From a virus: a DNA stretch of 35,997 nucleotides. The notes under the pieces were generated by a model, which saw only the letters and a program-made list of their open reading frames with translations, did not search any database and had not been told where the DNA came from. A program made the translations under genes and the position numbers. Shown one piece after another: positions 1 to 35,841 of the stretch (the stretch's first letter is position 1; every line of letters starts with the position of its first letter). Location of the stretch: the UHGV virus genome UHGV-0350163; one strand, written 5' to 3'.

Positions 1-140
1 AGCTGCTCCTTAGCCACCAGCGGTTCATCTGTGTCGTCGTTGATCAGCGTCGCGCGCTGTTTGCATTCCGGGCAGACGCTCGCTTGCGCCCGTAACATTT
101 CGCGGTTTTTGTAACTTCGCGTTTTTTTCTGGGCTAATTA

Positions 141-192
141 GCGCCCAATTCTGGGCGGGGAGATCTCAGCCAAAAAGCCCAGAATTGGGCGC
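141..192. repeat. Inverted pair of the end motif (ATTCTGGGCG at 148-157, GCCCAGAAT at 177-185) inside a 19-bp perfect inverted repeat (138-156 / 177-195); candidate right-end transposase binding sites
   Basis: Read directly from sequence: reverse complement of 177-195 matches 138-156. Same decamer core as the three copies at 35707-35841. Confidence 0.5.
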
Positions 193-274
193 TAACTTAT
201 TAGTTATGTTTCCGGTGTTTCACTCTCAGCAACAAACAACAGGAGAACGCATAATCGCAGCATAAAATGCATGA

Positions 275-301
275 TGTAAGGAGCTTATATCGCTCCTTAC
301 A
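275..301 (-). terminator. Stem-loop (10-bp stem TGTAAGGAGC / GCTCCTTACA, 7-nt loop) just downstream of the tail fiber stop; candidate terminator of the late operon
   Basis: Perfect inverted repeat 275-284 / 292-301 read from sequence; on the minus strand it is followed by TCATGCATTTTATG, so the U-run is not immediately adjacent. Confidence 0.35.
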
Positions 302-311
302 TTAATATTAT

Positions 312-2690
312 TCACTGGCCAGACAGCGATGCCAGCATGAAATAATGCAGCTCATCATTCCTTACAGACATTATTTCACCAGCCTCCCTGACCAGCTTGC
401 GCTCTCCGGTATCGTATTCTTCCATTGTAAGGAGTCCGTCAGAACCAAGCTCCATACGAGTCCCGTAAACCACTTCATATTCCGCCGGATATTCATCACG
501 ACACAAAATACCGTAATCAAAAGCGTCCAGCCCTTCCTCAGAGAAGACCTTCTGTACGTCCTGAGCAATCACTCCTACATGCCATCTGGCTGCGTTCCCT
601 TTGCTGGACACTGCATCCCTGAAACGGAACCGACAGATATACCCGAGCAGCTTTCTGGCAACCCTTTTTTCTGCATCCGACAGAATTGTTTCGTCCTGTT
701 TATGAGTCCGGTCTGATGTACTGATACTTCCCGTAGCTGAATAAACCTGTGCGGGTCGCCATGAGGCATAACCGATCGAATACGTATTATCTGTATAAGG
801 GCGGAGATTTCCTGATGAATCTATGCGCCATCTCTTTTCTCCTCCTGTGGCATTTGCATCCTGATTCGTTGCAAAATCAATCACTGTCGCTGACCTGAAC
901 ACAGATGAACCACCGCCAATTACCAGCGTGTTATTCCCCTCTGATGCCTGTTGGTCAACTACCAGTATTTTATCCTGATTTTTACCCGAACCACTTTTCG
1001 AGGCAGCGATAATACGATTAAACTGATCCTCACCATCGCTCTTTTGTGCGATGGTGATAACATTGGACCAGATTGCCTCTCTTTGTCGCTGAAAACCATA
1101 TTCTCCGCTGTCTGTAGTGACAGCTTTATATTTTATTCCACCTTCAGCTGACTCCTGCGTTATATAGAATGTCTGGTTATTAGCATTCTTGATGAACACA
1201 TAATTGTCAGCAGGAATGTCATTTCCACTCAGATCTTTAATCGGTGTCGTGGTTGTATGCAGACAAAACCATTTCTGACTCACAGAACGCATATATGCCA
1301 GAATTTCAGACAGGGATGTGAATACCGTCCCCAACACCGGGTTTACCAACCCCTGGGCACTACGGGGAAATGTTCCAATACTGGCATGAGACACATCAAA
1401 CCCCGTGTACAACCAGGCTGCCTGACGAAAATCAATAGCATCTCTGCCAGTACTGAACTCTTTCATCAGAACAATTCCTTTCTGATAAGCCTGTGGTAAC
1501 CCACGCTCCAGAAAGATATAAAGCGAATATATACTGCCGCCGTCGTCAGAAATACAAATTCCTTCGTTCTCAATGCGCGAAGGTGTAAAACCCTGCCTGG
1601 TAAGCACATCTATCATTTTTTGGGGATGAAGAATGGATTCCTGCTGCTTTACTCCATCCGGAGAAAAGACCTTAACCCCCTGAAACTGGTTAAATCCGGC
1701 TGATGCCCCGGTATTAAAATAGCCACCATAAGAACAGGCAATATAATCGTCTCCCACAGCAATTCCCTGACGTTTTGTGAAGCGTCTTGCATAGCTGTCT
1801 GTGCTTTCCGTGATATATCCGGAATCATGCAACGGTAATGTGAATGTCCCTGTCCGACGAAACTGAAAATCATACACCGCAAATACTGTGCGGGTGATCA
1901 GGCCTCCCACTTCCGGCGCTGACTGTTCAACCACCCAGCGGTTTTTACGATAGCTGAACTGGTTGTAAACACCGACATCATGTTCATCAATTAACGGCAA
2001 TACTGAACCAGAAATTGCCCCATCAAGCGAAAACTGTTTCAGTAATCCATTTTCTCCTGACATGAACAAACGTAATCCACCGTAATCCGTTGTCACCACA
2101 AGGCCTTCGCTGACAACGCCACGACCTCCATTATCGACATAATAATATCCCTCATATTCGCCGGATGTTGTGTACTGAACTATAACGTTCCGTGTCTGCT
2201 TTGGCTCAACGGTATAACTCAGATAGATTTTTTCTCCTGTCACCACAAATCCCTGTGGATACATATATTCCGCACCAGACTGAGCAGCCAGCACCGTATC
2301 GTAGTCCGGGAATAATAACGGCAATTCCATTAAGACACTACGGGAATGGTTAGTGTACAGATTGTTCAATGAACCAGCTTTTACATCCTGTAACCCCAGA
2401 TTTTCAAGAGCGCGTTCTACCGTGCCATCCGATTTGATATCGCCAAACGGATTATTGCGGCTTAACAGCAGCGCACGAAGCGCGGTAAGTAGCTGATCCG
2501 TTTTTTGGAGGGCAGGTTGAATATGTACACTACCAAGAACATTAAGGAGTTCCTGCTGTAAATCACGGATTGCCCCCTGCTGATTGTTTAAATAATCAGC
2601 AGTTACGATGGTTCCTTCTATCCCCTGAGTGGGGTCACCATCATGAAACAATTGATCCGGTGTATTTATCGGGGGCATCAGATTTTGCAT
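312..2690 (-). CDS. Tail fiber / tailspike (792 aa) with C-terminal intramolecular chaperone (peptidase S74-like) domain
   Basis: Last gene of the tail module after the baseplate genes. C-terminal ~130 aa contains SDRTHK...[10 protein letters not shown]...[16 protein letters not shown], which resembles the autoproteolytic chaperone domain of endosialidase-type tailspikes (from memory). Coding sequence is visibly more AT-rich than neighbouring structural genes. Confidence 0.8.
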
Positions 2691-3262
2691 TACTGCTCCT
2701 CCTTATATGTGAAATGGCAATAAGTAAAAGCGGGTTTAAGCTCTTTAAATGTTTCTTCCAGTACAGGGGCACCAAAGGAAAGTAACGGTTCCCCGGCAGC
2801 AGATACTCCGGTTCTGAATCTGTAAGCTGGCGTTTTGCTTCCTGTGACATTAACCTGCCAAATCCATCGGGCATCTGTTATATAGAGACGATCACCACAT
2901 CGGTTTACCCCCGTTCTAAATGGATGGAGTTCAGTAATTGTTATGGTGTACCCGAGGCTGGCTGCAAGTTGTTTAAAATAAGGGATAGATAACCCACCAG
3001 TTGCAGCCATCTTTATAAGAATATTTTCTCGGCGTTCCTGCTGCGTGGCACCATCGCGGGGTATTAATTCATACACTCGTTCCCAGTCAGACAGTGTCAT
3101 GGATGCGTAAAATGGTGTGACAGATGCAAGCACTCGTGCAGCTGACGCTTTTACTTCATCCATAATGGCTGCTTCTGCGTTCAGTTCTGTTGAAATATAT
3201 TTCCCGTTCGGGTCATAGCTGACCGGTGGTAACATGGCACGAAATAAATCAACCGTATTCAT
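2690..3262 (-). CDS. Tail/baseplate protein, Mu gp48-like (DUF2313-like)
   Basis: 190 aa ORF between baseplate J-like gene and tail fiber; position and size match Mu gp48. Confidence 0.6.
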
Positions 3263-3265
3263 GTA

Positions 3266-4345
3266 TTAACTCTCCCGGGGAAATGGCTGGATATCAATAC
3301 TCCCCGGACGCAGCCACTCCCATGTGGATTCATTGACAACTGCTTTTACATTATCTGACGGCATAATAATCCGCCGGTCACTGACGCCAGAAATTAATGA
3401 AATCTGAGTTTCCAGTTGTGAAATAATTAATTCCTGCCCCGGCTCCAGTCGGTTCATAAAATCCGTGATAACTTCAGTTATCTGTGGTTTTATCTGCTCA
3501 ACGGTCAGGCCGCTGGTTTTTACCCGGACAACGAAATCAACGGCTTTTTTCGTCGGGGCCAGTACCATCGTGTCCTTTGCTGTGACCGGGCAGACTTCCT
3601 CAATATGTGCCAGCACGGCATTAATCAGTTCCTGCGAGGGAAGGTCATTGGCTGACGTAATGGCCACATCAACCGTCCCCAGTCCACGACGTAATGGCTC
3701 CACATATGCCGAGGTAACGCCATCCACTTCCAGCGCCCAGCGTTTGTAATCATATTTATTACCGCCAGCGGGCGGCCTGCGCAGAATGTCCAGATAACGC
3801 GCCAGCAGGTCGGCGTTGCTTTCCCTGTCTGTTCCACCGGTCAGGGATTTAATCGTCACCGTGCTGTTGATGCCTTCCGGCGGACTGACCAGCGTTGCCG
3901 TCTGCGTCGTGGATGCATTCGTCAGTGCCCCCGTGGCAGTGCTTTTTACCGTCACCTCTGCGCTGCCTTCGTGGCCGATGGTGCAGTCTGCTGTGGTGGA
4001 CACGCTGACACCTTCACCACGAATTTCCGCACCGGCTGGCAGTGTCTTACCGGGAGTGCCGGTAATCACCACCGGACCGGATGAGGCGGTCGCTTTTTTA
4101 CGAAAAACATTGCGCGTGCGGCAGTGCAGCTCCAGATATTCAGGGTCTGCCGTGTCAGGAAACACCTGACGGAGTATCCACCCCTGATGCATATAAAGCC
4201 CGTCAGCCACACCGGATACGGCATTTGCACGAATGCGGTAATCGCTGTCAGCGCTGGTGTCGATGGTTTCTCCCGGCAGGGCGTTAGCGATATCACGTAG
4301 CTGGCGTTCTGTGTTTTCAGCAACGCCCGGAACAGGAAACGGCAT
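3266..4345 (-). CDS. Baseplate J-like protein (Mu gp47-like)
   Basis: 359 aa ORF in conserved baseplate position; start overlaps upstream stop. Confidence 0.7.
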   Translation of the reverse strand: MPFPVPGVAENTERQLRDIANALPGETIDTSADSDYRIRANAVSGVADGLYMHQGWILRQVFPDTADPEYLELHCRTRNVFRKKATASSGPVVITGTPGKTLPAGAEIRGEGVSVSTTADCTIGHEGSAEVTVKSTATGALTNASTTQTATLVSPPEGINSTVTIKSLTGGTDRESNADLLARYLDILRRPPAGGNKYDYKRWALEVDGVTSAYVEPLRRGLGTVDVAITSANDLPSQELINAVLAHIEEVCPVTAKDTMVLAPTKKAVDFVVRVKTSGLTVEQIKPQITEVITDFMNRLEPGQELIISQLETQISLISGVSDRRIIMPSDNVKAVVNESTWEWLRPGSIDIQPFPRES

Positions 4346-4695
4346 TACATAATCCTCACAGGGTGTTCAAATGTCTGCGGTGTGCCCGCGTTATCCGTGA
4401 CGGTGATTAACAGCAACAGCCAGCCGCGCTGCCCCGGTTTCGTGTCAACAGTAATGGATTTTGCCCGCCCGTCATTGAGCAGGGGCTGAAGTGCCTGGCT
4501 GGCATACTGCGCCGCCAGCCGGTGAACACGGGAAACGTCTTTTTCCCGCTTCAGCTCGTGCAGGCGTGACCCCAGCAACGCATCCGCCCAGTAACTGCCA
4601 AGCGGTGTCGCCAGTCGCAGATAAACCGCGTTATGGAGTGTATAAATCCGGCGGCGTTCGTAGTCGCCGGTTGCAGGTGAAATCGTCTGGTCCAT
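4345..4695 (-). CDS. Small baseplate protein (Mu gp46-like)
   Basis: 116 aa ORF between gp45-like and gp47-like genes. Confidence 0.6.
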   Translation of the reverse strand: MDQTISPATGDYERRRIYTLHNAVYLRLATPLGSYWADALLGSRLHELKREKDVSRVHRLAAQYASQALQPLLNDGRAKSITVDTKPGQRGWLLLLITVTDNAGTPQTFEHPVRIM

Positions 4696-4748
4696 GCCGC
4701 CAGTCTGGCAGCATGGACAGGTCAGAATCAGGTGAGGGTGTTCAGCAC

Positions 4749-5402
4749 TTAATTAACCGGCGTGTCAGACATGCCGTGTGGGGTTGGGTGTTTGTGTGTT
4801 CCGATTTTAACGCCATTAATGGTGACATCAACGGAGGTAAGCACACCACCCACATGGTTGATGTTGCCTTCAAAAGTGGCGGCGTATTCCTTGCCGCCAC
4901 GGATGGCCATGCCACCGTTGCCGGTGATTTTACCTTCCACCGTCAGCTTATCGCTGGCCGTCAGTAACGGTGTCGTGAATGCGGCGTTCTCCTCTGCCTC
5001 AACCTCATAGCGTTTGCATTTCACCCGGTAAACGTCACATTCTGTTTCAATAATCCGCCCGCGCTTCAATACGATTTTCGCGCCTTCGTCGGTATACAGG
5101 GCCACCTCGCCGGGTTTCAGTTCCGTCAGGCGATATGCGCCGTGCTCTGTGGCCACGATGACGGTATGGGAGGTATTGCCATTCAGCGGAACGGCAATAC
5201 CCATTGAGCCGGGCGGCGGGGATGTGGTGAGGCCGTAATGCTGAAAATACTCCGCACCATCCAGCTGTTCGCCTGCCAGCCCGTTCAGCTGAAGTAGCTG
5301 TACTTTGGTCGAACTGTCCACCGTACCGATCACCACCCTGAATGCCTGGCGAACGGCGGCCAGTGCCTGCTGTACGCGCTGATTAACCTTGTCCCACATC
5401 AT
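4749..5402 (-). CDS. Baseplate assembly / spike protein V-like (Mu gp45-like)
   Basis: 217 aa ORF translationally coupled to upstream gene; position matches Mu gp45. Confidence 0.7.
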   Translation of the reverse strand: MMWDKVNQRVQQALAAVRQAFRVVIGTVDSSTKVQLLQLNGLAGEQLDGAEYFQHYGLTTSPPPGSMGIAVPLNGNTSHTVIVATEHGAYRLTELKPGEVALYTDEGAKIVLKRGRIIETECDVYRVKCKRYEVEAEENAAFTTPLLTASDKLTVEGKITGNGGMAIRGGKEYAATFEGNINHVGGVLTSVDVTINGVKIGTHKHPTPHGMSDTPVN

Positions 5403-6610
5403 TTCTCCCAGACCTTAACAATGGCGACCTCTTTTTTCTTTTTGCCCCTGCGGTGATGGCGTTTCTTCTCGCGCGGGAAGGCGTCAGGTATCCACACGCC
5501 GTCCTCCTTAAAGCGAAGCCGGGTTGTCTGCCCGTTCCGGCCTCCGCTGAACTCACGCCCCATCAGGAAAAAGATGGCATCAATGCCGTGGAGTTCGCTG
5601 ACAATCCGCACCCGCTGGCCGGGCTGCCACAGAACACCATCTGCCGTGCGATGACCTGCAACCAGTGCGACGATATCCAGCCCCGACAGGCGGGCATCAC
5701 TCATCATTTTTTTTGCGCGCCAGCTCACCTGCTCCAGATTGCTGGTGTCGCCCTGGGTGATAATCTGCGGGCGGTAATAATCCACGGTGGGGTCGGTGGC
5801 CACGGCTTTCATGTTATGAATGCCTGTCTGACCACTGTCCGTATTACCGCTGTCCTGCCCGGATAATGTGCGCACGCTGCCGTCCTCGTTCCAGATATCC
5901 AGCGGCACCACGGCCACCTGTTTCTTGCTGTCTGCGCGGCGGGCGTGGCTCTGGGCCAGCACCGTCAGTTCGGAGAAACAGCCGTTAATGGATCGGGTAT
6001 CGTCCAGCTCCATCACGTTGTTCCCGGTGCCGTTCAGCTTCAGAATCAGCGTATCCACCGGCGTGGTGGTGTAGTCAGGGCCACCCACAACCAGCGTCCC
6101 GTCAGGCTCAAACCACGGCCATAAGCCGCGACCGGCGGCAGCTTTGGCCAGTGCATCCCACGCACGCATCCCCGGCTCAATAACAACTTTGTCATTACGT
6201 GACACACCGGACGCCTGTATACGGATGCGCTGTATCCCCAGTGGTCTGACTATCCTGTCGATGACCTCGTCCAGCGTCAGCTGGTTGGCGCTGAACACCG
6301 GCGCGGCACAGTCCACCAGGATGGCGGCATCATCACGCCCGGACAGGGCCAGCGTGCAGCTCTGACGGGACACACTACGGCGCACGCTGTCTATGCGCCC
6401 ACTGAGCACCGTTTCATCTCCCACCTGCAACCGGATTTGTGCGCCCCGGACGATATCCGCCGGGAACACCTTTTCAGGCAGCCCCAGCTGAAGCTGCCAG
6501 CCGTCGGCAGCTTTCAGGAAATCGCTGTCAATACGATAACTGCTCCAGTCAGAATGCGACCTTCCGGCAATGACCAGGCTAATTTTGTCTTCGTTATTTG
6601 GCGTAGGCAT
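5399..6610 (-). CDS. Tail protein P (Mu gp44-like, late control D family)
   Basis: 403 aa ORF following N-like gene, overlapping by 17 nt. Confidence 0.7.
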   Translation of the reverse strand: MPTPNNEDKISLVIAGRSHSDWSSYRIDSDFLKAADGWQLQLGLPEKVFPADIVRGAQIRLQVGDETVLSGRIDSVRRSVSRQSCTLALSGRDDAAILVDCAAPVFSANQLTLDEVIDRIVRPLGIQRIRIQASGVSRNDKVVIEPGMRAWDALAKAAAGRGLWPWFEPDGTLVVGGPDYTTTPVDTLILKLNGTGNNVMELDDTRSINGCFSELTVLAQSHARRADSKKQVAVVPLDIWNEDGSVRTLSGQDSGNTDSGQTGIHNMKAVATDPTVDYYRPQIITQGDTSNLEQVSWRAKKMMSDARLSGLDIVALVAGHRTADGVLWQPGQRVRIVSELHGIDAIFFLMGREFSGGRNGQTTRLRFKEDGVWIPDAFPREKKRHHRRGKKKKEVAIVKVWEK

Positions 6611-18543: not shown

Positions 18544-20125
18544 TCAGTCGCCCCCAGATATCCGCCACAAAGAATGCCTGTGTCAGCAACTGCCGCAGCG
18601 TTTCATCCGGCAGCTCCGGCCACGCTTCCGCCAGTACGTTCATAGCCTCGTCTGCATCCCGGCCTTCCTGTATGGCCTGCACCAGTGGGGCCACCAGTTC
18701 GTTCATCCCCTGCGCGATGGCCTCTGCCGGAAGCTCTGCCCGGTCGATGGCGTTCTGTGCCGGGTCGTCCTCCCCGTTGTCCTGCTGACTGAGTGCGACG
18801 ACATTCAGCCGCTCACGCAACTGGCTGAGGCCCGCCTGCACAGGGAGACGCTGTGCCACCGGCACCAGTACCTCTTCGCCGTCTTTCGGGGTGGGGATAC
18901 CGGTTTTTTTGCGTACCCACGACGCCGGGATATCCTTCATCCCCACATTGTTGAGCAGCACGCTGACGGCTTCCGCCACGCCCTTAATGTCGGCTTCCTG
19001 CTGCACATCAAACACCAGTCGCGGAAGACGGCGTGACGGGATATCCTGCCAGCCGTTGAGACTGGCCATCATCTGTATCAGACTGCTGAACATGCCGGAC
19101 AGCTGGCGTGCATCAGCGGTCAGAATGTCGTGCCGGACCTCGTTATGGACATTACCCAGTGCGTTGGTGGAGGTTTTACCGTCGGCCTGGCTGGTCAGCG
19201 TACTGCCCAGAATCACTTTTGAGGTGGTACGCTCCGCCCATTCCACCATCGACATGAATGCCTCCGGTCCGCCGGATGCGGCTTCCTTGAACTCGATTTC
19301 GTTACCCTGCGGCAGGGCTGCCACCGCTTCATGCCCCAGATTGACCAGCGCCTCAAGAATGTTGTCCCGGTCCGCGTCACTGGTGCCCTGTGCATAGTAC
19401 GCAATGCGCGCTGGAAGACCGTAAATCTCCAGAAATTCCGCCATATCACGCAGCGCGAAGTTTTTAAACAGATACGGCCAGACCAGTACGCGGAACAGGC
19501 CGGATGAACCCAGGAACCCCGACCGGGCGTTGTAACGGTGAACCAGCCAGCCGAACGGCCACAATGCGGAACCGTCCTTACCGTCTTCCCCACGGTTGCC
19601 GTCATCCAGCCGGAGTTCGTCATTGTGTTCCGGCAGAGTTATGAACCAGTTATGCGGGCGCAGCGTCACCGCATCCGGTAACCATGTTTTATCCACGAAC
19701 GCCCAGCTGATTTCCTGACAGCTGAAGCCGTAACCGACACCGCTCATCCCGTTGAGGATGATGTCCTCCATGTCCGGGATGCCGTGCAGCCATTCATCCA
19801 CGGCGGCGGCCAGCTCCTTTTCTGCCTTCGAGGCATTGCGGGGCGGCTCCACCGACCAGTCCAGCGTCAGCAACGCTTTTTTGCGCTTTTCCATCTCGGC
19901 GAACAGATGGCCATCACGTTCTTCCATATCCGCAAACAGCATCGCCTGCGCCGGAAGATAACCGCGTTCGGCTGCTTCCAGAATACGCGGCAGTTTTCTG
20001 ATGTTCAGACCACGGGACGGGTGATCGGGATAGATGCGCAGTCGTTCCGCCACTCTGACCGACTGCGTTGTTTTGAGTGCCTCACGTTTCAGCGGGCGTC
20101 CGTAAATATCAACAAGCTGTGCCAT
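18530..20125 (-). CDS. Portal protein (Mu gp29-like)
   Basis: 531 aa ORF immediately after the large terminase gene. Confidence 0.8.
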   Translation of the reverse strand: MAQLVDIYGRPLKREALKTTQSVRVAERLRIYPDHPSRGLNIRKLPRILEAAERGYLPAQAMLFADMEERDGHLFAEMEKRKKALLTLDWSVEPPRNASKAEKELAAAVDEWLHGIPDMEDIILNGMSGVGYGFSCQEISWAFVDKTWLPDAVTLRPHNWFITLPEHNDELRLDDGNRGEDGKDGSALWPFGWLVHRYNARSGFLGSSGLFRVLVWPYLFKNFALRDMAEFLEIYGLPARIAYYAQGTSDADRDNILEALVNLGHEAVAALPQGNEIEFKEAASGGPEAFMSMVEWAERTTSKVILGSTLTSQADGKTSTNALGNVHNEVRHDILTADARQLSGMFSSLIQMMASLNGWQDIPSRRLPRLVFDVQQEADIKGVAEAVSVLLNNVGMKDIPASWVRKKTGIPTPKDGEEVLVPVAQRLPVQAGLSQLRERLNVVALSQQDNGEDDPAQNAIDRAELPAEAIAQGMNELVAPLVQAIQEGRDADEAMNVLAEAWPELPDETLRQLLTQAFFVADIWGRLNADS

Positions 20126-20128: not shown

Positions 20129-21826
20129 TTACCATCCTCCTGAACCAAAACGCCCGCCACGGTCACGCCCGCTGCTGCGTGGGGTGTGTATCTGAAATTT
20201 TGCGCTGCGCGATACCGCCAGCGTCCACAGCATGTGCAGACAGTCCGGGCCATCATCGTGGTCGGCTTTGGGGTAGTGGCGCAGCTGGTCAATCAGCGTC
20301 TGATGTGCCGGACTGATGCGGATCAGGCCATTGGCCATATGCGGCTGAAGGGACTCAATACGCAGCGCTTTATCCTCCAGCGGGATGACCGGCAGCGCCG
20401 GAACCGGCACGCCCAGCGCCGCCGAACGCTCAACCAGCACGGTACGCAGAAACTCCTGAAACTGGACGGACTCAAACGACCAGCACAGACAGTGGTATTC
20501 CCGCTGATACTTAATCACGTCTTCGATAAGTTTGTTTGGCAGACGTCGGCGGATATCGGCTTCAACCACATCCAGAATGCCGGTAAAGCGGTTAAAGCCC
20601 CCCACGAGAATGGCCGACGGGTCGCGGTTTTTGTTTTTCTTCCCGAGACTGGGGTCAACAGCACCATAAAACACCCATTCATCAAGACGGTTAACCCAGA
20701 ACTTAATGCAGCCCGCAAACAGCGCATCTTCACCGCTGACCGGGTCGTTCTGGTATTCAGAATCAAAGGTGTCATGACCGTCACGGACACGGATTTTCAT
20801 CAGCGCCAGCAGGGGACGCGCCGCCCATGACACCACCGACCCGGCGAGCATCTCAGCCTCGTTCTGTCGGTAAAGTGCCTCCGCTGCTTCCGGCTGTTTG
20901 TTGCGGATGAGTTCTTCCCACTCGTCCCACAGCTTCATATTGGCAGGCCACTGAATAACGGCCTTAAAGCGGGCTGTTTTCCACATCGGGTTATTCAGCG
21001 TGCGCGACAGCACGGAGTCGTAATGCAGGATGGTTCCGATATAAATAATATCGGTTTTACCGCCAGCCTCACCCAGCGGCATCACGGTTTTGGTGAGCCA
21101 GTCATGCAGCTTGTCGCGCTGCTCCGGGTTACGCACCATCTCGTCGTTCTCGATATCGTCGAGGATGACCAAGTCAGGACGGTACGGACCGTGGCGCAGA
21201 CCACGCAGTTTTTTACCACTACCGGCAACGGTCACCTTGATATTGTTGGCCGTGACGATGGTCCCCATACGCCAGACGCGACCCTGCCCGCACACCTCCG
21301 GGAAATCGTTTTTTAAACGGGGGTTAAACTCCAGTTCAGCCTTGATGGCTTCCAGCATCGGATAAGCCTGGTCGATACTGTCCATAATGATGACCGGGTA
21401 ATGCTTAATGGCCCGGATAATGGTCCACAGGGTAAACAGCTGAGTCACCAGCGTGGATTTTGCTTCACCACGGGGCGCGGCGATGGCGTCGTTCTCCGGG
21501 TCCGGGCTTGCCACAACCTGTGGCAGACGGCTGAACAGGTATTTATGCAGCTCGCTTTTTGCCGGGTTGCGGACGTAGTGCGGGAAATAATTTTCGACAA
21601 AATAATCATAGCCCGTCACCGGATCGCAGACTGCCGCCCGGCGGGCCTGTGTGGCCTGTGGGTTAACATCGAACCCCAGACATTCAGCCTCAATGGTCTG
21701 GCGGAGGTTGGCGATGTACTCCTGCAGGCTTCTCTGAAACTCTTTAATGGAAAGTTTACGTTTTGCCACGTCACACCTGCGCTGCTTCTGCCTGCGCTTT
21801 TTCGAGACGTGCGCAGGCGATATCAA
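20129..21826 (-). CDS. Terminase large subunit (Mu gp28-like)
   Basis: 565 aa ORF as in the track. Real start may be the GTG at 21769, 1 nt after the methyltransferase stop and preceded by AGGTG. Confidence 0.8.
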   Translation of the reverse strand: MISPAHVSKKRRQKQRRCDVAKRKLSIKEFQRSLQEYIANLRQTIEAECLGFDVNPQATQARRAAVCDPVTGYDYFVENYFPHYVRNPAKSELHKYLFSRLPQVVASPDPENDAIAAPRGEAKSTLVTQLFTLWTIIRAIKHYPVIIMDSIDQAYPMLEAIKAELEFNPRLKNDFPEVCGQGRVWRMGTIVTANNIKVTVAGSGKKLRGLRHGPYRPDLVILDDIENDEMVRNPEQRDKLHDWLTKTVMPLGEAGGKTDIIYIGTILHYDSVLSRTLNNPMWKTARFKAVIQWPANMKLWDEWEELIRNKQPEAAEALYRQNEAEMLAGSVVSWAARPLLALMKIRVRDGHDTFDSEYQNDPVSGEDALFAGCIKFWVNRLDEWVFYGAVDPSLGKKNKNRDPSAILVGGFNRFTGILDVVEADIRRRLPNKLIEDVIKYQREYHCLCWSFESVQFQEFLRTVLVERSAALGVPVPALPVIPLEDKALRIESLQPHMANGLIRISPAHQTLIDQLRHYPKADHDDGPDCLHMLWTLAVSRSAKFQIHTPRSSGRDRGGRFGSGGW

Positions 21827-22511
21827 AATACTGGTTAGTCATTTCAATGCCGGTAAACCGTCCGCCACGGGCAAGCACAGGGATGGCGGTGGTGCCGCTT
21901 CCCATAAACGGATCGAGGACGTGCGCATCCGGTGCCAGCGGTTTAACCAGCTCGGCCATCAGCTGAACCGGCTTTGCGGTCATGTGCAGTTTTTCAGACG
22001 GGACAACACGCTGCGTAATCACACCCGGGAACGGGCCACCGTGCGGGCATTTGTCGAGTTTTCCGTTGCTGCCCCAGACCACATACTCTGCCTGATGCCG
22101 GAAATAGCCGGTGTGTGGCGCACGGGAAGCAAGCGTTTTATCCCAGACAACCAGACCACGCCACAGCACACCACCGGCCTGAAATGCATCGGTAAGCGCT
22201 GGTAGTTGTCGCCAGTCACTGAACACCATGAAATAACCGCCGGGATTCAGCCTGTGCAATGCATGAGAAATCCACATGGAACACCAGAACGCCCAGCTGC
22301 GCTGGTCGCGGTTATCGCCGGTGAACTCGGCATACTGGGTGTGACCGACATACTTGTCCGAAGGGGCCATGCTGCGGTCTGATTTGTGTGTGCCGCCACT
22401 GCTGTAAGGCGGGTCGGTAATGACGGCATCAAAACGTTCAGATAACGCTGACAGCACATCAAGAACATCACCGCAATACAACGTTGCGTTACCAATAATC
22501 TGTTTTTGCAT
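21771..22511 (-). CDS. DNA methyltransferase, beta-class N6-adenine/N4-cytosine type (orphan)
   Basis: 246 aa; DPPY catalytic motif near the N-terminus (ITDPPYSSGG) and SAM-binding motif near the C-terminus (LDPFMGSGTT); this IV-before-I order defines the beta class. No adjacent restriction endonuclease. Confidence 0.85.
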   Translation of the reverse strand: MQKQIIGNATLYCGDVLDVLSALSERFDAVITDPPYSSGGTHKSDRSMAPSDKYVGHTQYAEFTGDNRDQRSWAFWCSMWISHALHRLNPGGYFMVFSDWRQLPALTDAFQAGGVLWRGLVVWDKTLASRAPHTGYFRHQAEYVVWGSNGKLDKCPHGGPFPGVITQRVVPSEKLHMTAKPVQLMAELVKPLAPDAHVLDPFMGSGTTAIPVLARGGRFTGIEMTNQYFDIACARLEKAQAEAAQV

Positions 22512-27956: not shown

Positions 27957-27960
27957 CGTT

Positions 27961-28149: not shown

Positions 28150-28370
28150 TGCGCCGCCTCCTGTTTTGCCACTTTAAACGCCCGTAACATCGGAACCGTT
28201 TTACCGGTGATGACGGTTCTCATTAAAAGACCGCCACCGCTCTCATGGCGCACTTCAGGGGCTACAAACAACGCCGCATCCACAACCCGGTTATAGCGGC
28301 GAAACTCCCAGAGCCAGCAGGTAACAATGATTTTTGCTTTAGTCCCATAGTTATAAAATTCAATATTCAT
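28146..28370 (-). CDS. Hypothetical protein
   Basis: 74 aa ORF, overlapping start/stop with neighbours. Confidence 0.4.
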   Translation of the reverse strand: MNIEFYNYGTKAKIIVTCWLWEFRRYNRVVDAALFVAPEVRHESGGGLLMRTVITGKTVPMLRAFKVAKQEAAQ

Positions 28371-28594
28371 TTGCAGTTAAACCTCCTTTTGTGACGTTCT
28401 ACAGCGGCTTTCATGGCGTTGTGCACGGTTCTTTTAATAATCCGGCGTCCCACACTGTCATAGAACCGCCACCGGGAAGCCCCCGGATATTTGGGAAACT
28501 CAACCGCCGCGCTGCCGTCATTCATCCTGTATTCGTGGCGTTCTCCTGGCGGCTGGTATATTGCTTCGGTAACACTGAGAAGTTTAAAAGCCAT
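28367..28594 (-). CDS. Hypothetical protein
   Basis: 75 aa ORF, overlapping start/stop with neighbours. Confidence 0.4.
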   Translation of the reverse strand: MAFKLLSVTEAIYQPPGERHEYRMNDGSAAVEFPKYPGASRWRFYDSVGRRIIKRTVHNAMKAAVERHKRRFNCK

Positions 28595-28596
28595 CG

Positions 28597-29307: not shown

Positions 29308-29320
29308 GGTCGTCTGAACC

Positions 29321-29503
29321 TCAGCATCCTGAATTCTGAATTACGCAACTTCCGGCACGGCCTTCAGGAACGTGGGGAGTTCGTTCTGGCTGCGGTACTG
29401 AATGAGCATCTGCTGTCGATTGAGAACTGGTCGCAAGACGATTAAAACAAACGATTGTCAGATTAATTTCGCGGGCGAACTTTTTTTGCTTTGCGATATT
29501 CAT
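29321..29503 (-). CDS. Hypothetical small protein
   Basis: 60 aa ORF with GAGGAAG RBS 7 nt upstream of ATG. Confidence 0.4.
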   Translation of the reverse strand: MNIAKQKKFAREINLTIVCFNRLATSSQSTADAHSVPQPERTPHVPEGRAGSCVIQNSGC

Positions 29504-29522
29504 AAATAAACTTCCTCAGATT

Positions 29523-29560
29523 CAGGCGTAAGCCAGCCCTGGCGGGTTTACGCCTGTTTT
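29523..29560 (+). terminator. Stem-loop (9-bp stem CAGGCGTAA/TTACGCCTG, 16-nt loop) followed by TTTT on the plus strand; candidate plus-strand terminator or 5'-UTR structure
   Basis: Read directly. U-tract follows only in the plus-strand sense, antisense to the early operon; on the minus-strand mRNA it sits just upstream of the RBS of the 29321..29503 gene. Confidence 0.3.
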
Positions 29561-29585
29561 AAATAACAATTAAAAACAAATTAAA

Positions 29586-29777
29586 TTAATGCGGTGCTTT
29601 CAGTGTTTCGACTTTTACGAAATAAGGCTCGACATTAATTTCAACCACACAACCACATTTAAAATCTCTGGCAGGTGAAACGGTTTTCACCACACGACCA
29701 CCACGCAACGCCGGATGTGCAGTGTGCATGAAGCGAGTCCCTACCGGATACTGCTTATTAAAGTTCTTCGCATTCAT
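29586..29777 (-). CDS. Hypothetical small protein
   Basis: 63 aa ORF. Confidence 0.4.
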   Translation of the reverse strand: MNAKNFNKQYPVGTRFMHTAHPALRGGRVVKTVSPARDFKCGCVVEINVEPYFVKVETLKAPH

Positions 29778-29991
29778 GGCGTGGCCTCCAGCCCTTCAGG
29801 TGAGCGTTAGCGCAGAACTCCGCACGATGTTCAGCCCAGATGCGGCGCAGGGTGCTACACGGGCTTTGCGCTGCCTTGCGCCACAGTTTTTCTGCCTCAT
29901 CATAATCGCCGCGTTGTTCTGCTCTGGATGCACCCAGCGAATACGCCGCGCAACGATTTCCGGCTCTGTACTCTTTGATATCCTGATGCAT
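29758..29991 (-). CDS. Hypothetical protein (internal start MHQDIKEY)
   Basis: ATG at 29991 sits 1 nt after the stop of the upstream gene; the track ORF 29758..30081 is over-extended. Confidence 0.45.
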   Translation of the reverse strand: MHQDIKEYRAGNRCAAYSLGASRAEQRGDYDEAEKLWRKAAQSPCSTLRRIWAEHRAEFCANAHLKGWRPRHECEEL

Positions 29992-29992
29992 G

Positions 29993-30637
29993 TTAAACCC
30001 CTGCAATATCAAGCGGGATTGCGCGGTATTCATCAGAATCACCAACGCGCTCATACACACGAATATAGCTCTTGCTGCCAATCACCTGGACGGCTTCACC
30101 AATCAGCATCATGGCGTTATTCCAGCGTTCGTCCTCAATTTCGAGGCGACGCAGGGCCAGAACGCGCCCTGTGTTAATGTTGCCTTCCTTGTCCGTGCTG
30201 AATGCCTCGCTAATGATGGCTTTAATTTCAGGGCGCGCACCTTCCGTCCAGTCAGCTAGGCAATCATCAATCAGCGACTTCGCGGTCTGAATGCGTTCAT
30301 CAAACGCGATACGGTCCTGCATGGCGCGCTGAATCTTGTATCGCCCGTCAAAGCTGTAAAGCGTGATATTGCCTTTTTTGCCGCCTTTCACAGCGCCGTA
30401 TTTCTCCGCCGACAGGTCAATAAATGCCTGGATATCACCAAACGCACGCAGTTTCAGTTCCCGCAGCGAGGCGGAGGCAGCAATCACCATCTCCACAAGC
30501 TCACCGACCAGCTGCTCGCGGTCGCGGTCAATATCTTTGATAAGGCTTTCAGGTGTCATTACGCCACGGGCATCCACCCAGTAACCTTCAGGCGCTTGAG
30601 TTTTCGTGTATTGCTTAACTTTATTTTCAGTCGTCAT
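29993..30637 (-). CDS. Early-region protein (DUF3164-like)
   Basis: 214 aa ORF; family assignment from memory only. Confidence 0.5.
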   Translation of the reverse strand: MTTENKVKQYTKTQAPEGYWVDARGVMTPESLIKDIDRDREQLVGELVEMVIAASASLRELKLRAFGDIQAFIDLSAEKYGAVKGGKKGNITLYSFDGRYKIQRAMQDRIAFDERIQTAKSLIDDCLADWTEGARPEIKAIISEAFSTDKEGNINTGRVLALRRLEIEDERWNNAMMLIGEAVQVIGSKSYIRVYERVGDSDEYRAIPLDIAGV

Positions 30638-30666
30638 AATTAAATTACCTCAGTGATATTTACAGA

Positions 30667-30882
30667 TTAATGTGTGTTATGTGCGCGAGGCGCAACGTTT
30701 TCAGAAAAAAGATTCACGCCGTTATAGTCATTTCTAAGCGTTTCCTTGATAACATCATGTAATCCTGTTGCCACCTGAAGCTCCCTTTTGGAAGTGCCAT
30801 CCTTCGAATAACTCCCTGTAATCCGGGTAAGAGTCGCGCCTTTTTCATTGGTATAGATAATTACTTCTAATTTAACCGCCAT
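30667..30882 (-). CDS. Hypothetical protein
   Basis: 71 aa ORF with GAGAGGAAA RBS. Confidence 0.45.
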   Translation of the reverse strand: MAVKLEVIIYTNEKGATLTRITGSYSKDGTSKRELQVATGLHDVIKETLRNDYNGVNLFSENVAPRAHNTH

Positions 30883-30894
30883 TCTGATTTCCTC

Positions 30895-31122
30895 TCATTG
30901 CCATACGACGGTACAGCCGTCGATACAGGACGTTTTAACCACGCGGCGCAGGCCGCTGAATGTCTGAACGATTTCCGTTACCGGCCATACAGGACCACCC
31001 ACAGGCGGGCAGGCATAAACCACAGGTAAACGGTGATGCTGCCCCGTTACGCGACCGCCAGTGGTATGGATAGCCACACGGGCACGGGAACGGACGGCAT
31101 TAATGGCCTGCTTTTCCATCAT
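30895..31122 (-). CDS. Hypothetical protein (start MMEKQ or MENK)
   Basis: Track ORF 30895..31212 trimmed to internal start; GGAGAA sits 5 nt upstream of ATG 31122. Confidence 0.4.
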   Translation of the reverse strand: MMEKQAINAVRSRARVAIHTTGGRVTGQHHRLPVVYACPPVGGPVWPVTEIVQTFSGLRRVVKTSCIDGCTVVWQ

Positions 31123-31133
31123 TTTGTTCTCCA

Positions 31134-31152
31134 TCAGTGAATTAACATTTCT
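31134..31152. repeat. 19-bp perfect direct repeat, copy 1 (TCAGTGAATTAACATTTCT)
   Basis: Identical to 31507-31525; lies between the inserted 110-aa gene and the next gene. Confidence 0.9.
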
Positions 31153-31160
31153 CTGCTGTA

Positions 31161-31493
31161 TTATCTGAGCGTAAACGCCAGTCGGGGCTGATACCGGGGC
31201 AGGTGGGCACACATGCGTGCAAGGCGGTAAGCCCGACGAAACCCCTGCAAAGTCTGCTCAAAAGGAATAATCATTAATCGCGCACAGCATTCATCAACAT
31301 CCCAGTCGTCGCTGGTATTTCCGGTTCCATTGATTTCCCGTTCGCGGGAATATAAATCAATACGCAGTTCACCCGGCACGAAGCAATCAACAAACGGAAT
31401 AATTTCACCGGGGGTTCCATTAAAATAAATACAACCATTACGACCGATATTCCGTAGTGCTTTAATTTCTTTTTTTACGGCAATCTGTTCCAT
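31161..31493 (-). CDS. Hypothetical protein (110 aa) bracketed by the 19-bp direct repeats
   Basis: ORF with AAGG/AGGT RBS; occupies the segment between the two repeat copies. Confidence 0.55.
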   Translation of the reverse strand: MEQIAVKKEIKALRNIGRNGCIYFNGTPGEIIPFVDCFVPGELRIDLYSREREINGTGNTSDDWDVDECCARLMIIPFEQTLQGFRRAYRLARMCAHLPRYQPRLAFTLR

Positions 31494-31506
31494 ACCTGAC
31501 CTTTAC

Positions 31507-31525
31507 TCAGTGAATTAACATTTCT
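31507..31525. repeat. 19-bp perfect direct repeat, copy 2 (encodes the last codons and stop of B)
   Basis: Identical to 31134-31152. Confidence 0.9.
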
Positions 31526-32400
31526 GCGAATTTATCTATGGCCTGCACACTGACCGGCGCATCGCTGATATCGCAAATCCGGTACACACCGCGCGCCAGT
31601 TTGAACAGGCGGCGGGTATTACCCAGCGAGCGCGCGTAAAGCGCCTCGCTGATTTCCGGTTCTGCTGCTTCCGGCATCAGCCCGGTGGCTATCTGGTTAA
31701 AATCTTCCTGCGCCAGCGTGTCGCCCAGGTTAAGCGCCAGCGCCACGCGGCTGTATAACTGCGCAAATTCACCACGACGCCCCTTGAGATTAATCAGAAG
31801 ACGAGGCATACCCGCCAGGACAACCCCGATACCCGCTTTATCATGCAGACGGCGCAGAACCTCCAGTGCGCGATAGGGGAGCAGTTCAGCTTCGTCCACC
31901 ATCAGCAGACGACCGGAATCACGCAGTTCGCGCACACAGGCATCAATCAGTTCGTGAATGTTGCCGCGAACCTTTACCCCCAGCTGGCGGCACAACTCCT
32001 CAAGCAGTGTCCTGGCTGTATAGCCCGGGTCAGCCTCAATCAGGACCGCATCCCGGTTTCTGGCTGCGTATTCACGCAGAATCATTGTTTTGCCAAGACC
32101 AGCTGCGCCATACAGTACACAGATTTCACATTCCAGGTGAGCGTAGGCCAGCACCTCCAGTCCTTTGGCAGCCATACCGGTGGCAACAAATTTCGCTTTA
32201 ATACGGCGGCTGTTTTCCTTTTCCCGCTCACGGGTCACAAAGGCAGAAATGCGTTCTTCAATATCAGCCATATCGCCCTGATATTTACCCTGTAAATACT
32301 GGTTGATAACGGCGCTGCTACGACCAATAGCACGGGCGACGTGGGTCTGCGTATAGCCGCGACGGGCCATTACGTCATTTAATTGCGTAATTAAACTCAT
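31507..32400 (-). CDS. B: Transposition ATPase B (MuB-like, AAA+)
   Basis: 297 aa; N-terminal HTH-like region, Walker A (GAAGLGKT) and Walker B-like (LLMVDEAE); directly downstream of the transposase. Confidence 0.9.
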   Translation of the reverse strand: MSLITQLNDVMARRGYTQTHVARAIGRSSAVINQYLQGKYQGDMADIEERISAFVTREREKENSRRIKAKFVATGMAAKGLEVLAYAHLECEICVLYGAAGLGKTMILREYAARNRDAVLIEADPGYTARTLLEELCRQLGVKVRGNIHELIDACVRELRDSGRLLMVDEAELLPYRALEVLRRLHDKAGIGVVLAGMPRLLINLKGRRGEFAQLYSRVALALNLGDTLAQEDFNQIATGLMPEAAEPEISEALYARSLGNTRRLFKLARGVYRICDISDAPVSVQAIDKFAEMLIH

Positions 32401-32418
32401 AATTAAATACCTTTTAAA

Positions 32419-34461
32419 TTAACGGTTGTTTGTGCCGTTTTTCTTTAAATTGCGCTCGCGTTCAGATGCGAATAAATAAAGTTCTTCTTTTTCCTTTTTC
32501 TCCGGGCGCTCCAGTCCATATCCCAGATTAAAGTCTGGCTTCTGCGTAATAGCCGGGGTAAGCTCGCGTTTAGCCTCTTCGATTTTCTGCGTGGCCCGTG
32601 CAATGCGGCCCCTGACGCGTTTCTCCAGTTTTTGTTCGATAACTGGTTTAGCGAAGGCATCAACCTTGTTACCGTTCCAGATGGCATCGCAGATATAAGA
32701 GCCATCAGCCCGCCGGACAATGACGCTGTTTGCATCATGAATATCGTAACTGACCCTGACTTCATTCCCGTGCTCTGCGGCCAGATCATATGAGTAATAA
32801 ATATTGTTGAATAACTGAATTTCCCCGCGAAATGTTTTGCGCGTCACTTCCGGTCTGAACATTTCATGCAGTTCTTCCGGCGACAGGAAATCAATTTCAA
32901 CATTCTGCTCTTTTATCAGTTTCCGGCGATACGCTGCCGGGCTGTAATATTCGCCATCCTCTTTGCGGGGAAGGCTGCTGTGTGGCCGGTTGTTATAGCG
33001 TCTGACCTCCAGCTCTATGGCCGCCATCAGTTGCTCAAAGGTGGGGATTTCATCCCTCGCCTTAACCTGCCGTTTTGTCAGTTCTTTCCCTTTGTGGGTG
33101 GCCTTAATGGCCGACTGCATAATCCGTTGCTGCATCATTACGGTTTCCTTGTCTGCATCCTTTGCGCAGTACGTCTGGAAACTCAGTGCCACGTCTTTGG
33201 GTATTCCTTTGTTTGCCCGTTCTATTACCCCGCGCCCCTGCGGGTTACCCGGTATCCCCGTGTGATGCTCCACACCCAGCCGGGGCAGAATCCCGGTAAT
33301 ATCGGCATCAAGCACCCGGTTTTTTTCGCCGCCCCCGTTATCGGAATAATAAATCAGCGGTATCCCGTGCTGTGCCATGCCGTAACGCAACGCATCAGCA
33401 ACGGCTATCACGTTTTCCGACAGGGACAGTGACCAGCCCACAACAAAGCGCTGCCCCGCATCCATAACCAGCGTCACTTCTGGCCGGAAAATATTGCCGG
33501 TCAGGGGGTTAAACGCGGTCATTTTCATACAGTGACCATCCCCGACCCATACCGCATTAACCGGTAATGATGTCCACTCGCGCCGCACAAAGGGATTGAG
33601 CGAACGCCAGGCTGAACCTGTGGAGCGGAAACGCTCCTTAACAATCACCGGGACGCTGCTTAACACTCGTCTTACTGCGTGAACTGAAGGCAGTGCCGCC
33701 AGCATTCCCGCATCATTCGCGTGTTTCTCATGCCACCAGGCTGAAAACTCGCGATAAGCGTATTCAACGGTCGGGCGCTTCCATGAGCGATAGAACATAA
33801 AGAAATCGCTCAGCCACCAGACCTGCTCCCACGGAGTTCCCTTATGATGACCGGGAGCCAGTAACGCCAGTAACTGATTGGCATCACCGCGCGCCATCAC
33901 CCAGCTGGAGTACCAGCTATCCAGGCTGCCGGTGCTGACACCGGTTCGCTTTCCCTGACGTGCATTTGCAGTATTCGCTGCTTCGATAATGCGGTCAGGT
34001 AACGCCCCCATGCGCACACCATCAACGATGTGCTTTAACGCGGCCTTCCTGGTCATTCCGGCGTATTCACGCAGTTTATGCACTTCAGTAGCCAGCAATA
34101 TCCGCGCATCAGCAATGGCCTTTTGCTTGTCGGTCAGTGCCTGGACTTCGCGTAATGCCAGTTCCGGGCATTTGACCATCACTTCCAGTTCATCGCGAAC
34201 GGCGACGTTTTTAACTGCCTTCTGCTCAACCACGGCGGGCAGTTGTGCATCTTCCAGGACCTGATGAGTCAGGCGCTTACGTAAAACTTTCTGCGCTTCA
34301 GCGGGCAGGCTGTCGATGTGATACTCGAATGCTTTTGTGCCTTCACGCTTGCGCTTCCATTCCGGGTGCGTCTCTGTGATCCGATTGAGCGTCCATCGCA
34401 CCCCCTGAACTGTACCGGGCAAACGAGGAAGACCGGCCAGCTCATTGGCTGAATAAAACAT
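32419..34461 (-). CDS. A: DDE transposase A (MuA-like)
   Basis: 680 aa; N-terminus (ANELAGLPRLPGTVQGVRW...IDSLPAEAQ) and the central DDE core (WVGDGH...DNGGG) resemble MuA (from memory); ATG overlaps ner stop (TAATG). Confidence 0.9.
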   Translation of the reverse strand: MFYSANELAGLPRLPGTVQGVRWTLNRITETHPEWKRKREGTKAFEYHIDSLPAEAQKVLRKRLTHQVLEDAQLPAVVEQKAVKNVAVRDELEVMVKCPELALREVQALTDKQKAIADARILLATEVHKLREYAGMTRKAALKHIVDGVRMGALPDRIIEAANTANARQGKRTGVSTGSLDSWYSSWVMARGDANQLLALLAPGHHKGTPWEQVWWLSDFFMFYRSWKRPTVEYAYREFSAWWHEKHANDAGMLAALPSVHAVRRVLSSVPVIVKERFRSTGSAWRSLNPFVRREWTSLPVNAVWVGDGHCMKMTAFNPLTGNIFRPEVTLVMDAGQRFVVGWSLSLSENVIAVADALRYGMAQHGIPLIYYSDNGGGEKNRVLDADITGILPRLGVEHHTGIPGNPQGRGVIERANKGIPKDVALSFQTYCAKDADKETVMMQQRIMQSAIKATHKGKELTKRQVKARDEIPTFEQLMAAIELEVRRYNNRPHSSLPRKEDGEYYSPAAYRRKLIKEQNVEIDFLSPEELHEMFRPEVTRKTFRGEIQLFNNIYYSYDLAAEHGNEVRVSYDIHDANSVIVRRADGSYICDAIWNGNKVDAFAKPVIEQKLEKRVRGRIARATQKIEEAKRELTPAITQKPDFNLGYGLERPEKKEKEELYLFASERERNLKKNGTNNR

Positions 34462-34697
34462 TACGCCGCCTTACTGGCATACCGGCTTGGCCAGATCTCC
34501 GCAGGTTCCACACCAATAGCATCGGCTATGATGCGTTCATATTTAGGGCATGAGCGATACAGTGCATTTTTTAAAGAGTCTTTTTTTAGACCAGCGCGTT
34601 CAGAAAGTTCACGCAATGTAAAACCTTTGGTGTGCACAGCGGCAACGATGTACTCGCGGTGCCAGTCTTTGTTCATTACTTCATTTCTAACCATCAT
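34461..34697 (-). CDS. ner: Ner-like DNA-binding regulator
   Basis: Track ORF trimmed to MMVRNEVMNKDWHR...; shares the DWHR...NAL.R..PK.E.IIA.A....P..IWPSRY pattern with Mu Ner (from memory). Confidence 0.75.
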   Translation of the reverse strand: MMVRNEVMNKDWHREYIVAAVHTKGFTLRELSERAGLKKDSLKNALYRSCPKYERIIADAIGVEPAEIWPSRYASKAA

Positions 34698-34714
34698 TAG
34701 GTTACCCTTAAAAA

Positions 34715-34757
34715 TTATCCGTGCGGATAACACCGCCGTGTTATCCCTTCGGATACA
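34715..34757. promoter_or_regulatory. Two palindromic operator-like sites (TTATCCG-TG-CGGATAA at 34715-34730; TTATCC-CTTC-GGATAC at 34741-34757) in the divergent repressor/ner control region
   Basis: Read directly; the region 34698-34879 separates divergent ner (minus) and repressor (plus) genes, where Mu has its operators. Confidence 0.45.
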
Positions 34758-34879
34758 AGTATTGATCCATATGTAGCCCATGTAAAGCAAAAATAACCCT
34801 TTCTTTGTATTTTCTTTTTGATTTTGGTCTTTATGTGGTTTTTGCAATTAAAATCAACTAGTTATAGAGGAAAGAAAAA

Positions 34880-35527
34880 ATGACCAGAAATGATGATGCT
34901 TTTTCTTTTGTCGACCGGGGAAAAGAAAGTTTCAGAGAGCGTTTAGTAAAGCTGATAGGTAATCGCAGTGTCAGAACTGCTGCGAGTGATTGGGGAATCC
35001 CCCCTTCAACCTTAAACAACTACATTCATAAAGGAACTGAGCCTTCTTTTAAAATAGCTTGCCTTATCTCAGATAAAGAGCAAGTGAGCTTAAATTGGCT
35101 CGCTTACGGTAAGGAACCCACCACCAAAGAAGGTTCTCTATCAAATCAAACAGCGCAGCCTTCTCCCGATATTACAAACGAGCTAGTTAACGAGTTATTG
35201 AAAAGAGCGTCCACAGAAGTTAAGGAGCAACTGATAAGTGCAATATGCGATATGGGCATTAAAGGAATCTTGGAACGCCTACAGCAACCAACCAGGCAAA
35301 CTAAGCAGACCGACAGCGACCTGGACGAACAAGAGACTGCCATCAGAAGCCTAAACATCAGGGAATCGCTTAAAGACGCTATTTGCATGGCATTGGCTGG
35401 TAATGAAGAAACTGATAAAGAGATTTTGCGACGCATCGAATCTCGTGCACGGACTGGGTCGCCAGGTGGTGAGACCATTGCCACGCTGGAGCAAGAAACG
35501 AAACCTGTAAGCAAAAAACCAGCATGA
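34880..35527 (+). CDS. Prophage repressor, CI-like with XRE-type HTH
   Basis: 215 aa; N-terminal HTH (SVRTAASDWGIPPSTLNNYIHKG...LNWLAYG); only plus-strand gene, divergent from ner. No S24 peptidase-like C-terminal domain recognised. Confidence 0.75.
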   Translation: MTRNDDAFSFVDRGKESFRERLVKLIGNRSVRTAASDWGIPPSTLNNYIHKGTEPSFKIACLISDKEQVSLNWLAYGKEPTTKEGSLSNQTAQPSPDITNELVNELLKRASTEVKEQLISAICDMGIKGILERLQQPTRQTKQTDSDLDEQETAIRSLNIRESLKDAICMALAGNEETDKEILRRIESRARTGSPGGETIATLEQETKPVSKKPA

Positions 35528-35706
35528 ACGCCTACTACTTGGTAGGCGTATGCTGCCAACTAACTAGCGACATCCAACAAAACCAATACCGACAACTGAT
35601 AAGAAAGGAATAAATCAGACAAGATTAGAACGGGCTTTAGAATCTTTTAAACGAGTTTTAAAATCTTTTAAAAGGAGATCGCTTTCTTACACCACCAGAT
35701 CAAAAG

Positions 35707-35841
35707 CGCCCAGAATAAAGCGTAAAAAAAGGCACTTTTGGTCATTTCTCACAAATCCGCCCAGAATCACACTAAATCACCATACCCCGCGCCACACAAG
35801 GCTTGCAGGTTCTACCAGGCTGCACGAACTCCGCCCAGAAT
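35707..35841 (+). repeat. Three direct copies of CGCCCAGAAT (35707-35716, 35758-35767, 35832-35841); candidate left-end transposase binding sites
   Basis: Read directly; spacing 51 and 74 bp; same decamer occurs inverted at the other end (148-157). Confidence 0.55.

Follow-up and report, generated by a model that had tools for sequence, protein, structure and literature searches.

Six short terminal repeats of a Mu-like prophage in hyfH as probable binding sites of its own transposase

The stretch analysed here, UHGV virus genome UHGV-0350163 (35,997 nucleotides, called the window throughout), is a Mu-like myovirus prophage transposed into hyfH, with its early genes on the minus strand; the subject of this report is a set of short repeats at the two prophage ends. 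The hyfH gene (hydrogenase 4 subunit H) is split by the prophage in this strain: homology to it covers window positions 1–109 and 35858–35997, ending at 109 and resuming at 35858. The uninterrupted hyfH of an empty site (L001) reads CGCGGTTTTGTGG, and the occupied site has TTTT on either flank. By this empty-site comparison the prophage occupies 110–35857 (35,748 bp) and reads TGTAAC...CCCACA, that is, with TGT...ACA ends. Because the early genes run on the minus strand, the right end of the window is the left end of the phage (attL) and the left end of the window is attR. The end features are as follows.

106–109, unstranded: left 4-bp target-site duplication, TTTT, from empty versus occupied hyfH.
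110–125, plus strand: last 16 bp at the tail-fibre end (attR), TGTAACTTCGCGTTTT; homology to hyfH ends at 109.
126–135, plus strand: R1 core, TTTCTGGGCT, offset 17–26 from the terminus, pointing inward.
148–157, plus strand: R2 core, ATTCTGGGCG, offset 39–48, pointing inward, 22 bp after R1.
176–185, minus strand: R3 core, ATTCTGGGCT in the minus-strand reading, offset 67–76, inverted relative to R1 and R2.
138–156 and 177–195, unstranded: 19-nt perfect inverted repeat, 20 nt between the arms.
35707–35716, minus strand: L3 core, ATTCTGGGCG, offset 142–151 from the repressor-side terminus, pointing inward.
35758–35767, minus strand: L2 core, ATTCTGGGCG, offset 91–100, pointing inward.
35832–35841, minus strand: L1 core, ATTCTGGGCG, offset 17–26, pointing inward.
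35842–35857, minus strand: last 16 bp at the repressor end (attL), TGTGGGGTAGTGATCA; homology to hyfH starts again at 35858.
35858–35861, unstranded: right 4-bp target-site duplication, TTTT, from empty versus occupied hyfH.

A sequence-only reading of this DNA had proposed that a decamer confined to both extremities marks multiple transposase sites, inverted between the two ends. By the mapped junctions, the ends (110 and 35857) stand 16 bp beyond the outermost copies, and when the two ends are aligned the core falls at the same offset, 17–26, from termini 35 kb apart; all cores point inward except R3. At the attR terminus the cleavage end reads TG on the plus strand and CA-3' on the other strand, and this terminus is identical, between different flanks, in the relatives L002, L003, L004 and L088. 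The attL terminus, TGTGGGG..G..ATCA, persists even in lineages whose transposase is as little as 44% identical.

An exhaustive count bears out the confinement and amends the number of copies. The decamer CGCCCAGAAT, the opposite-strand form of ATTCTGGGCG, occurs exactly four times, on the minus strand at 148–157 and on the plus strand at 35707–35716, 35758–35767 and 35832–35841, against an expectation of 0.08 from dinucleotide-preserving shuffles (none of 100 shuffles reaches four). Of the five copies counted earlier, the three direct ones (35707–35841) and the inverted pair are there, the fifth, at 176–185, reading AGCCCAGAAT with one mismatch at its first base; what all five share is the 9-mer GCCCAGAAT. 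A sixth copy had been overlooked: R1, at 126–135, reads TTTCTGGGCT on the plus strand with two mismatches. The 8-mer TTCTGGGC is found seven times where 1.42 are expected, six times at the ends and once in the portal gene at 19205–19212, and all six terminal cores lie no more than 151 bp from a prophage end. The portal-gene copy was considered as a further site and rejected, as a lineage whose terminal sites are of GGAC type (window type: GGGC) reads ATCCTGGGC there, with no matching change. No exact decamer was present in a 49.9-kb sample of host chromosome. The attL block matches 54 of 5426 complete Escherichia coli genomes, with a median of one match each, and is therefore no repeat scattered through the host. 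The 19-bp perfect inverted repeat reported earlier is present as described and consists of R2 and R3 with their 5' flanks; in L004, L088 and L003 only an 11-bp core, CAATTCTGG[G/A]C, remains of it. The inverted pair is R2 with an inverted R3, both at one end, and the inverted repeat is a by-product of this arrangement, with no conserved hairpin.

The same ends are found at many other places. Close relatives are inserted in eutC (strain E2348/69), scpC, chbG, ypdF, PAAR and RHS genes, the baseplate gene of another phage and elsewhere, and the terminal 164 bp of attL are 93–100% identical among the listed E. coli genomes, at many different loci. Five insertions had both junctions read: they share the same termini and all five carry 4-bp duplications (TTTT in hyfH, which is AAAA in phage orientation, then CTGG, CGAA, CACT and TATC), 5 bp being excluded in three of them. 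The eutC duplication comes only from a comparison of the two flanks, the flank string not having been found in the sampled strain. A 4-bp duplication is also annotated by the depositors of LC727895, with copies in L094 at 1290–1293 and 40631–40634. Target cleavage at a 4-bp stagger seems to be common to the entire transposase clade; Mu duplicates 5 bp and B3 duplicates 6 bp (PMC8705779). Two of the relatives have histories of their own: the one in strain JNE21-009 (L003, NZ_AP041814.1) has moved by transposition into a second prophage, within its baseplate gene, and the one in RM9088 (L087, NZ_CP042298.1) carries IS66, IS21 and IS1 insertions, one of them in the transposase gene. This last prophage is probably dead and, being broken up by these elements and having its far end beyond the stretch covered, was excluded from the two-end comparison.

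The cores are fixed in position and variable in sequence. An ungapped alignment of attL from 17 lineages, with transposase identities of 44–100%, holds them at offsets 17, 91 and 142. In L003, TTCTGGAC/T replaces TTCTGGGC at all six sites, a change of G to A, and R1 reads TTTCTGGACT. Other relatives have other cores at comparable attL positions: TTCTGCAC, with a spacing of 74/51 (or 73/51) as in the window, TTTGATAC, with a slightly different spacing (71 and 42), and TTTTGCAT. A scan of species-representative genomes with the L1 pattern found five Enterobacterales species, all of the GGAC type, so that GGGC looks like a derived Escherichia variant.

The core type can be followed into the transposase, for which two features matter here.

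32419–34461, minus strand: MuA-family DDE transposase, 680 residues (Pfam Mu-transpos_C, HTH_Tnp_Mu_1 and rve).
33892–34059, minus strand: codons 135–190 of the transposase gene, candidate specificity module comprising two helices of an I-beta-like domain.

Aligned with hhalign, the protein matches MuA over its full length (probability 98.8%, about 24% identity over the alignment). Between close relatives of GGGC and GGAC type, all 11 fully segregating residues fall at 137–188. The block 135–190 is identical at 56 of 56 positions in every GGGC lineage, including those in which identity over residues 200–680 falls to 90% and those with unrelated first 60 residues; L008, of GGAC type, keeps 42 of the 56 while its residues 200–680 are 99.6% identical to those of the window. 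Compared across these sequences, the core type tracks block 135–190 and neither the remaining transposase nor the repressor. In the wider clade, the two variable residues of an S-L-x-x-W helix are DS with GGGC, QE with GGAC or GCAC, KR with GATAC and NG with TTGCAT. A Citrobacter protein with a mixed block (T139, Q181, E182) has GGAC sites, and this hybrid narrows the candidates to K139, L142, D181 and S182. An AlphaFold2 model of residues 60–270 (predicted local distance difference test score 79) is all-helical, with helices at 138–151 and 177–190, and the best structural matches of the predicted fold that holds the block are the Mu transpososome and the end-binding I-beta domain of MuA. A sequence search of solved structures aligned the DDE core and the I-alpha domain only, and not the end-binding region.

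We propose, with a probability of roughly 90%, that each decamer forms the conserved inner core of a binding site for the prophage's own MuA-type transposase, with six such sites in all, three per end. We favour sites of the Mu kind because the ends lie 16 bp outside the outermost copies with the same core offset at both; because number, spacing and orientation repeat the L1–L3 and R1–R3 layout of Mu; because independent insertions preserve the sites and, in one lineage, all six have changed in concert; and because the core change tracks a transposase block in the region modelled as the Mu end-binding domain. Physical binding to the six sites is what we infer from this pattern, and the earlier proposal of terminal transposase sites is supported to that extent by position, layout, conservation and change, and the transposase link. 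By analogy with Mu, one transposase monomer would bind each site through I-beta- and I-gamma-like domains. Helices 138–151 and 177–190 might read the conserved ATTCTG together with the variable core positions 7–10, K139, L142, D181 and S182 being candidate contact residues, with no pairing of bases to residues claimed. Both ends would then be synapsed into a transpososome, again as in Mu, with L1, R1 and R2 perhaps forming its core and L2, L3 and R3 serving as accessory sites. The 3' CA ends would be nicked and joined, with a 4-bp stagger, to a target captured with the MuB-like ATPase, also by analogy.

Several points weigh against this proposal. The contacts and the roles of the individual sites are all things that we infer. 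The GGGC type may have a single origin, and the co-variation may amount to a few independent events combined with recombination mosaics; both ends were read in one GGAC lineage only (L003). Moreover, L020 pairs the QE block with mixed sites (GGGC, GGAT and GGGT), and the transposase may therefore tolerate variation at core position 7 and not read it strictly. In the I-beta/I-gamma region the protein resembles MuA only weakly in sequence, a Foldseek search returned nothing significant, and a Pfam scan of 26 family members at E≤1 gave no match to I-gamma (PF09039).

Two neighbouring genes enter into the mechanism and into the choice between explanations.

31507–32400, minus strand: MuB-like AAA+ ATPase, 297 residues, the likely target-capture partner (Pfam AAA_22 and TniB).
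34880–35527, plus strand: CI-type repressor, divergent from the early operon (Pfam Phage_CI_repr).

The Mu repressor, too, has binding sites at the Mu ends, and the repeats might accordingly be operator or immunity sites for the prophage repressor or for Ner rather than for the transposase, the more so as the three attL copies lie 180–330 bp downstream of the end of the repressor gene. We consider this very unlikely: the repressor is of CI type and not of the Mu Rep type, which shares a domain with MuA; repressor and core type are uncoupled, the repressor of L010 being 81% identical to that of the window yet accompanied by GGAC and that of L002 only 53% identical yet accompanied by GGGC; and separate palindromes, TTATCCGTGCGGATA and TTATCCCTTCGGATA, occupy the expected place of an operator in the c-ner spacer at 34715–34755. 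Moreover, the sites lie at the termini, and operators would offer no rationale for an equal core offset from two termini 35 kb apart. The attR end alone could suggest something different, namely that the inverted repeat at 138–195 is a hairpin, either a terminator of the late tail operon or another RNA or DNA signal, with the motif copies incidental. As RNA, both strands do fold strongly (-42 and -38.7 kcal/mol, each with z about -5), and the minus strand has a weak terminator-like pattern that overlaps R3. Still, the arms beyond the 11-bp core have diverged in L004, L088 and L003 without compensating changes, the long stem lacks a proper T-run on either strand, nothing in the window matches Rfam, and a better terminator-like hairpin stands at 274–302, directly after the tail-fibre gene. 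Given, in addition, that R1 and the three direct copies at the other end would be left unexplained, this explanation seems extremely improbable.

The repeats might instead serve packaging, as pac sites, or be recognised by a host architectural protein (IHF, HU or Fis). The left end of Mu contains both pac and an HU site. The latter has been placed at the L end (PMC3820752). Here, the attL region does have conserved stretches besides the cores: AAGCCTTGA, T-runs and TTTAAA repeats. Packaging calls for a pac site at a single end, however, whereas the motif is present at both, mirrored and at identical offsets, and a host factor would hardly account for a core that differs among related phages of the same hosts while co-varying with a block of a phage protein. 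The motif is also unlike the IHF or Fis consensus. We thus give the packaging and host-factor explanations next to no chance and retain the six repeats as probable transposase sites.

The comparison with Mu is close in architecture and distant in sequence. Mu has three MuA sites per end, with differing spacings (PMC3145075). The Mu ends were scanned with a consensus that recovers the Mu sites at 0–1 mismatches (L1 7–27, L3 152–172, R1 7–27, R2 29–49 and R3 56–76, inverted). As in Mu, there are three sites per end, arranged asymmetrically and spaced differently at either end; the outermost site reaches to about 26–27 bp from the TG...CA terminus; R1 and R2 are 22 bp apart, R3 is inverted and a long spacer separates L1 from L2/L3. 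The likeness extends to the transposase, with its I-alpha-like N-terminus, I-beta-like fold, DDE core and Mu C-terminal barrel, followed by the MuB-like ATPase, and to the gene order c, ner, A, B, then head, tail and tail fibre. Yet the 22-bp Mu consensus fits none of the six sites (the best in attL has 7 mismatches of 19), in line with the earlier remark that the sequence is unlike the Mu att sites, and here only some 10–11 bp per site are strongly conserved. In Mu, L2 and L3 have offsets of roughly 110 and 152, compared with 91 and 142 here, and R3 stands some 10 bp closer to the terminus; Mu duplicates 5 bp of its target and the present prophage 4 bp, and the repressor is of Rep type in Mu and of CI type here. 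One match to the Mu consensus with 4 mismatches, at attR offset 108 (217–237, GTTTCACTCTCAGCAACAAAC), was discarded: it is unconserved in L004, L088 and L003 and lacks the CGAAA half.

A nearer system is Mu_JNE122137, which lies inside a Shiga toxin (Stx) phage (LC727895) and represents the Sp18-like Mu-like phages of Shiga toxin-producing E. coli (PMC10132054). It belongs to the same transposase clade (44% identity), has the annotated 4-bp duplication, and its cores begin at offset 18 at both ends with R1 and R2 22 bp apart. It differs in its core, TTTGATAC, in the helix motif (T/S-L-K-R-W versus S-L-D-S-W in the window), in the positions of L2 and L3 (113 and 165) and in R3, which is direct and not inverted. 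The end sites of TnsB in Tn7 and in CRISPR-associated transposons (CAST) belong to another type of element and have another sequence, with a 5-bp duplication and a heteromeric TnsA/TnsB; they also stand outside any phage context. A nucleotide search of the phage collection with the first 12 kb returned a 100-bp tail-fibre match only, and the closest transposase in that collection is 49% identical. The family is known from genome annotation, and no described phage comes close to it at the DNA level. As a kind, the element is familiar: it works as a specialist would expect and overturns nothing in current understanding; what is new here is the sequence of the sites, a one-base switch coupled to a swappable protein block and the consistent 4-bp duplication.

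Other features of the prophage complete the picture. Besides the transposase and the ATPase, the minus strand encodes a Ner-like protein and, after the ATPase gene, a Mu-like portal, F protein, sheath and tail fibre. The two palindromes between the divergent repressor and ner stand 26 bp apart as candidate operators; L039 and L043 contain related CGGATAAC triplets. Just inside L3, a tandem 21-bp A/T-rich repeat (AACGGGCTTTAGAATCTTTTA / AACGAGTTTTAAAATCTTTTA, 35629–35676, offset about 182–229) has a TTTAAA...TTTAAA pattern that is kept down to 44% transposase identity; among other roles, it might be bent DNA or be bound by a host factor or by the I-alpha-like domain of the transposase. Within the L1–L2 spacer, the block AAGCCTTG(A/T) at about 35797–35806 (attL offset 52–61) is conserved in nearly all 17 lineages; the L1–L2 spacer of Mu carries TGCAAGCCTGT at offset about 85–95. 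The hairpin at 274–302 has a perfect 11-bp stem and a 7-nt loop, directly follows the tail-fibre stop (312, minus strand) and is likely the terminator of the late operon. The tail-fibre gene itself (312–2690, 792 residues) ends in a C-terminal Peptidase_S74 chaperone domain and is mosaic, its nucleotides 2392–2498 resembling tail-fibre genes of SfV, SfI and SfII. The sequence next to attR is mosaic as well, the whole 110–330 stretch being common to 6 of 58 matching genomes. Finally, an open reading frame of 246 residues at 21771–22511 (minus strand) lies between the DUF1804 gene and the large terminase, and its counterparts in relatives are annotated as DNA methyltransferases; a DNA methyltransferase gene is not known to belong to the layout of the Mu late region.

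This group of prophages is widespread in Enterobacterales (one protein cluster at 90% identity has 1450 member sequences), and the site model TGTGGGGnrGTGATCA followed by ATTCTGG[G/A]C allows their boundaries and insertion sites to be called with ease. With a duplication that is consistently 4 bp, the stagger at the target seems to differ from that of Mu within one transposase family. It is also conceivable, though on balance we doubt it, that GGGC and GGAC cores together with the 56-residue block (K139/L142/D181/S182 versus T/V/Q/E) constitute two orthogonal end-recognition specificities. If so, near-identical Mu-like prophages resident in the same E. coli cell would be unable to mobilise or interfere with each other's ends, and nature would have re-coded MuA-type DNA recognition in a compact form, open to transplantation for building orthogonal Mu-style transposition tools. 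The transposases of the window and of L008 differ almost only at 135–190, and their cores by one base at each site examined; this natural pair, the more useful outcome here, is a ready-made experiment on how the I-beta domains of the MuA family read DNA.

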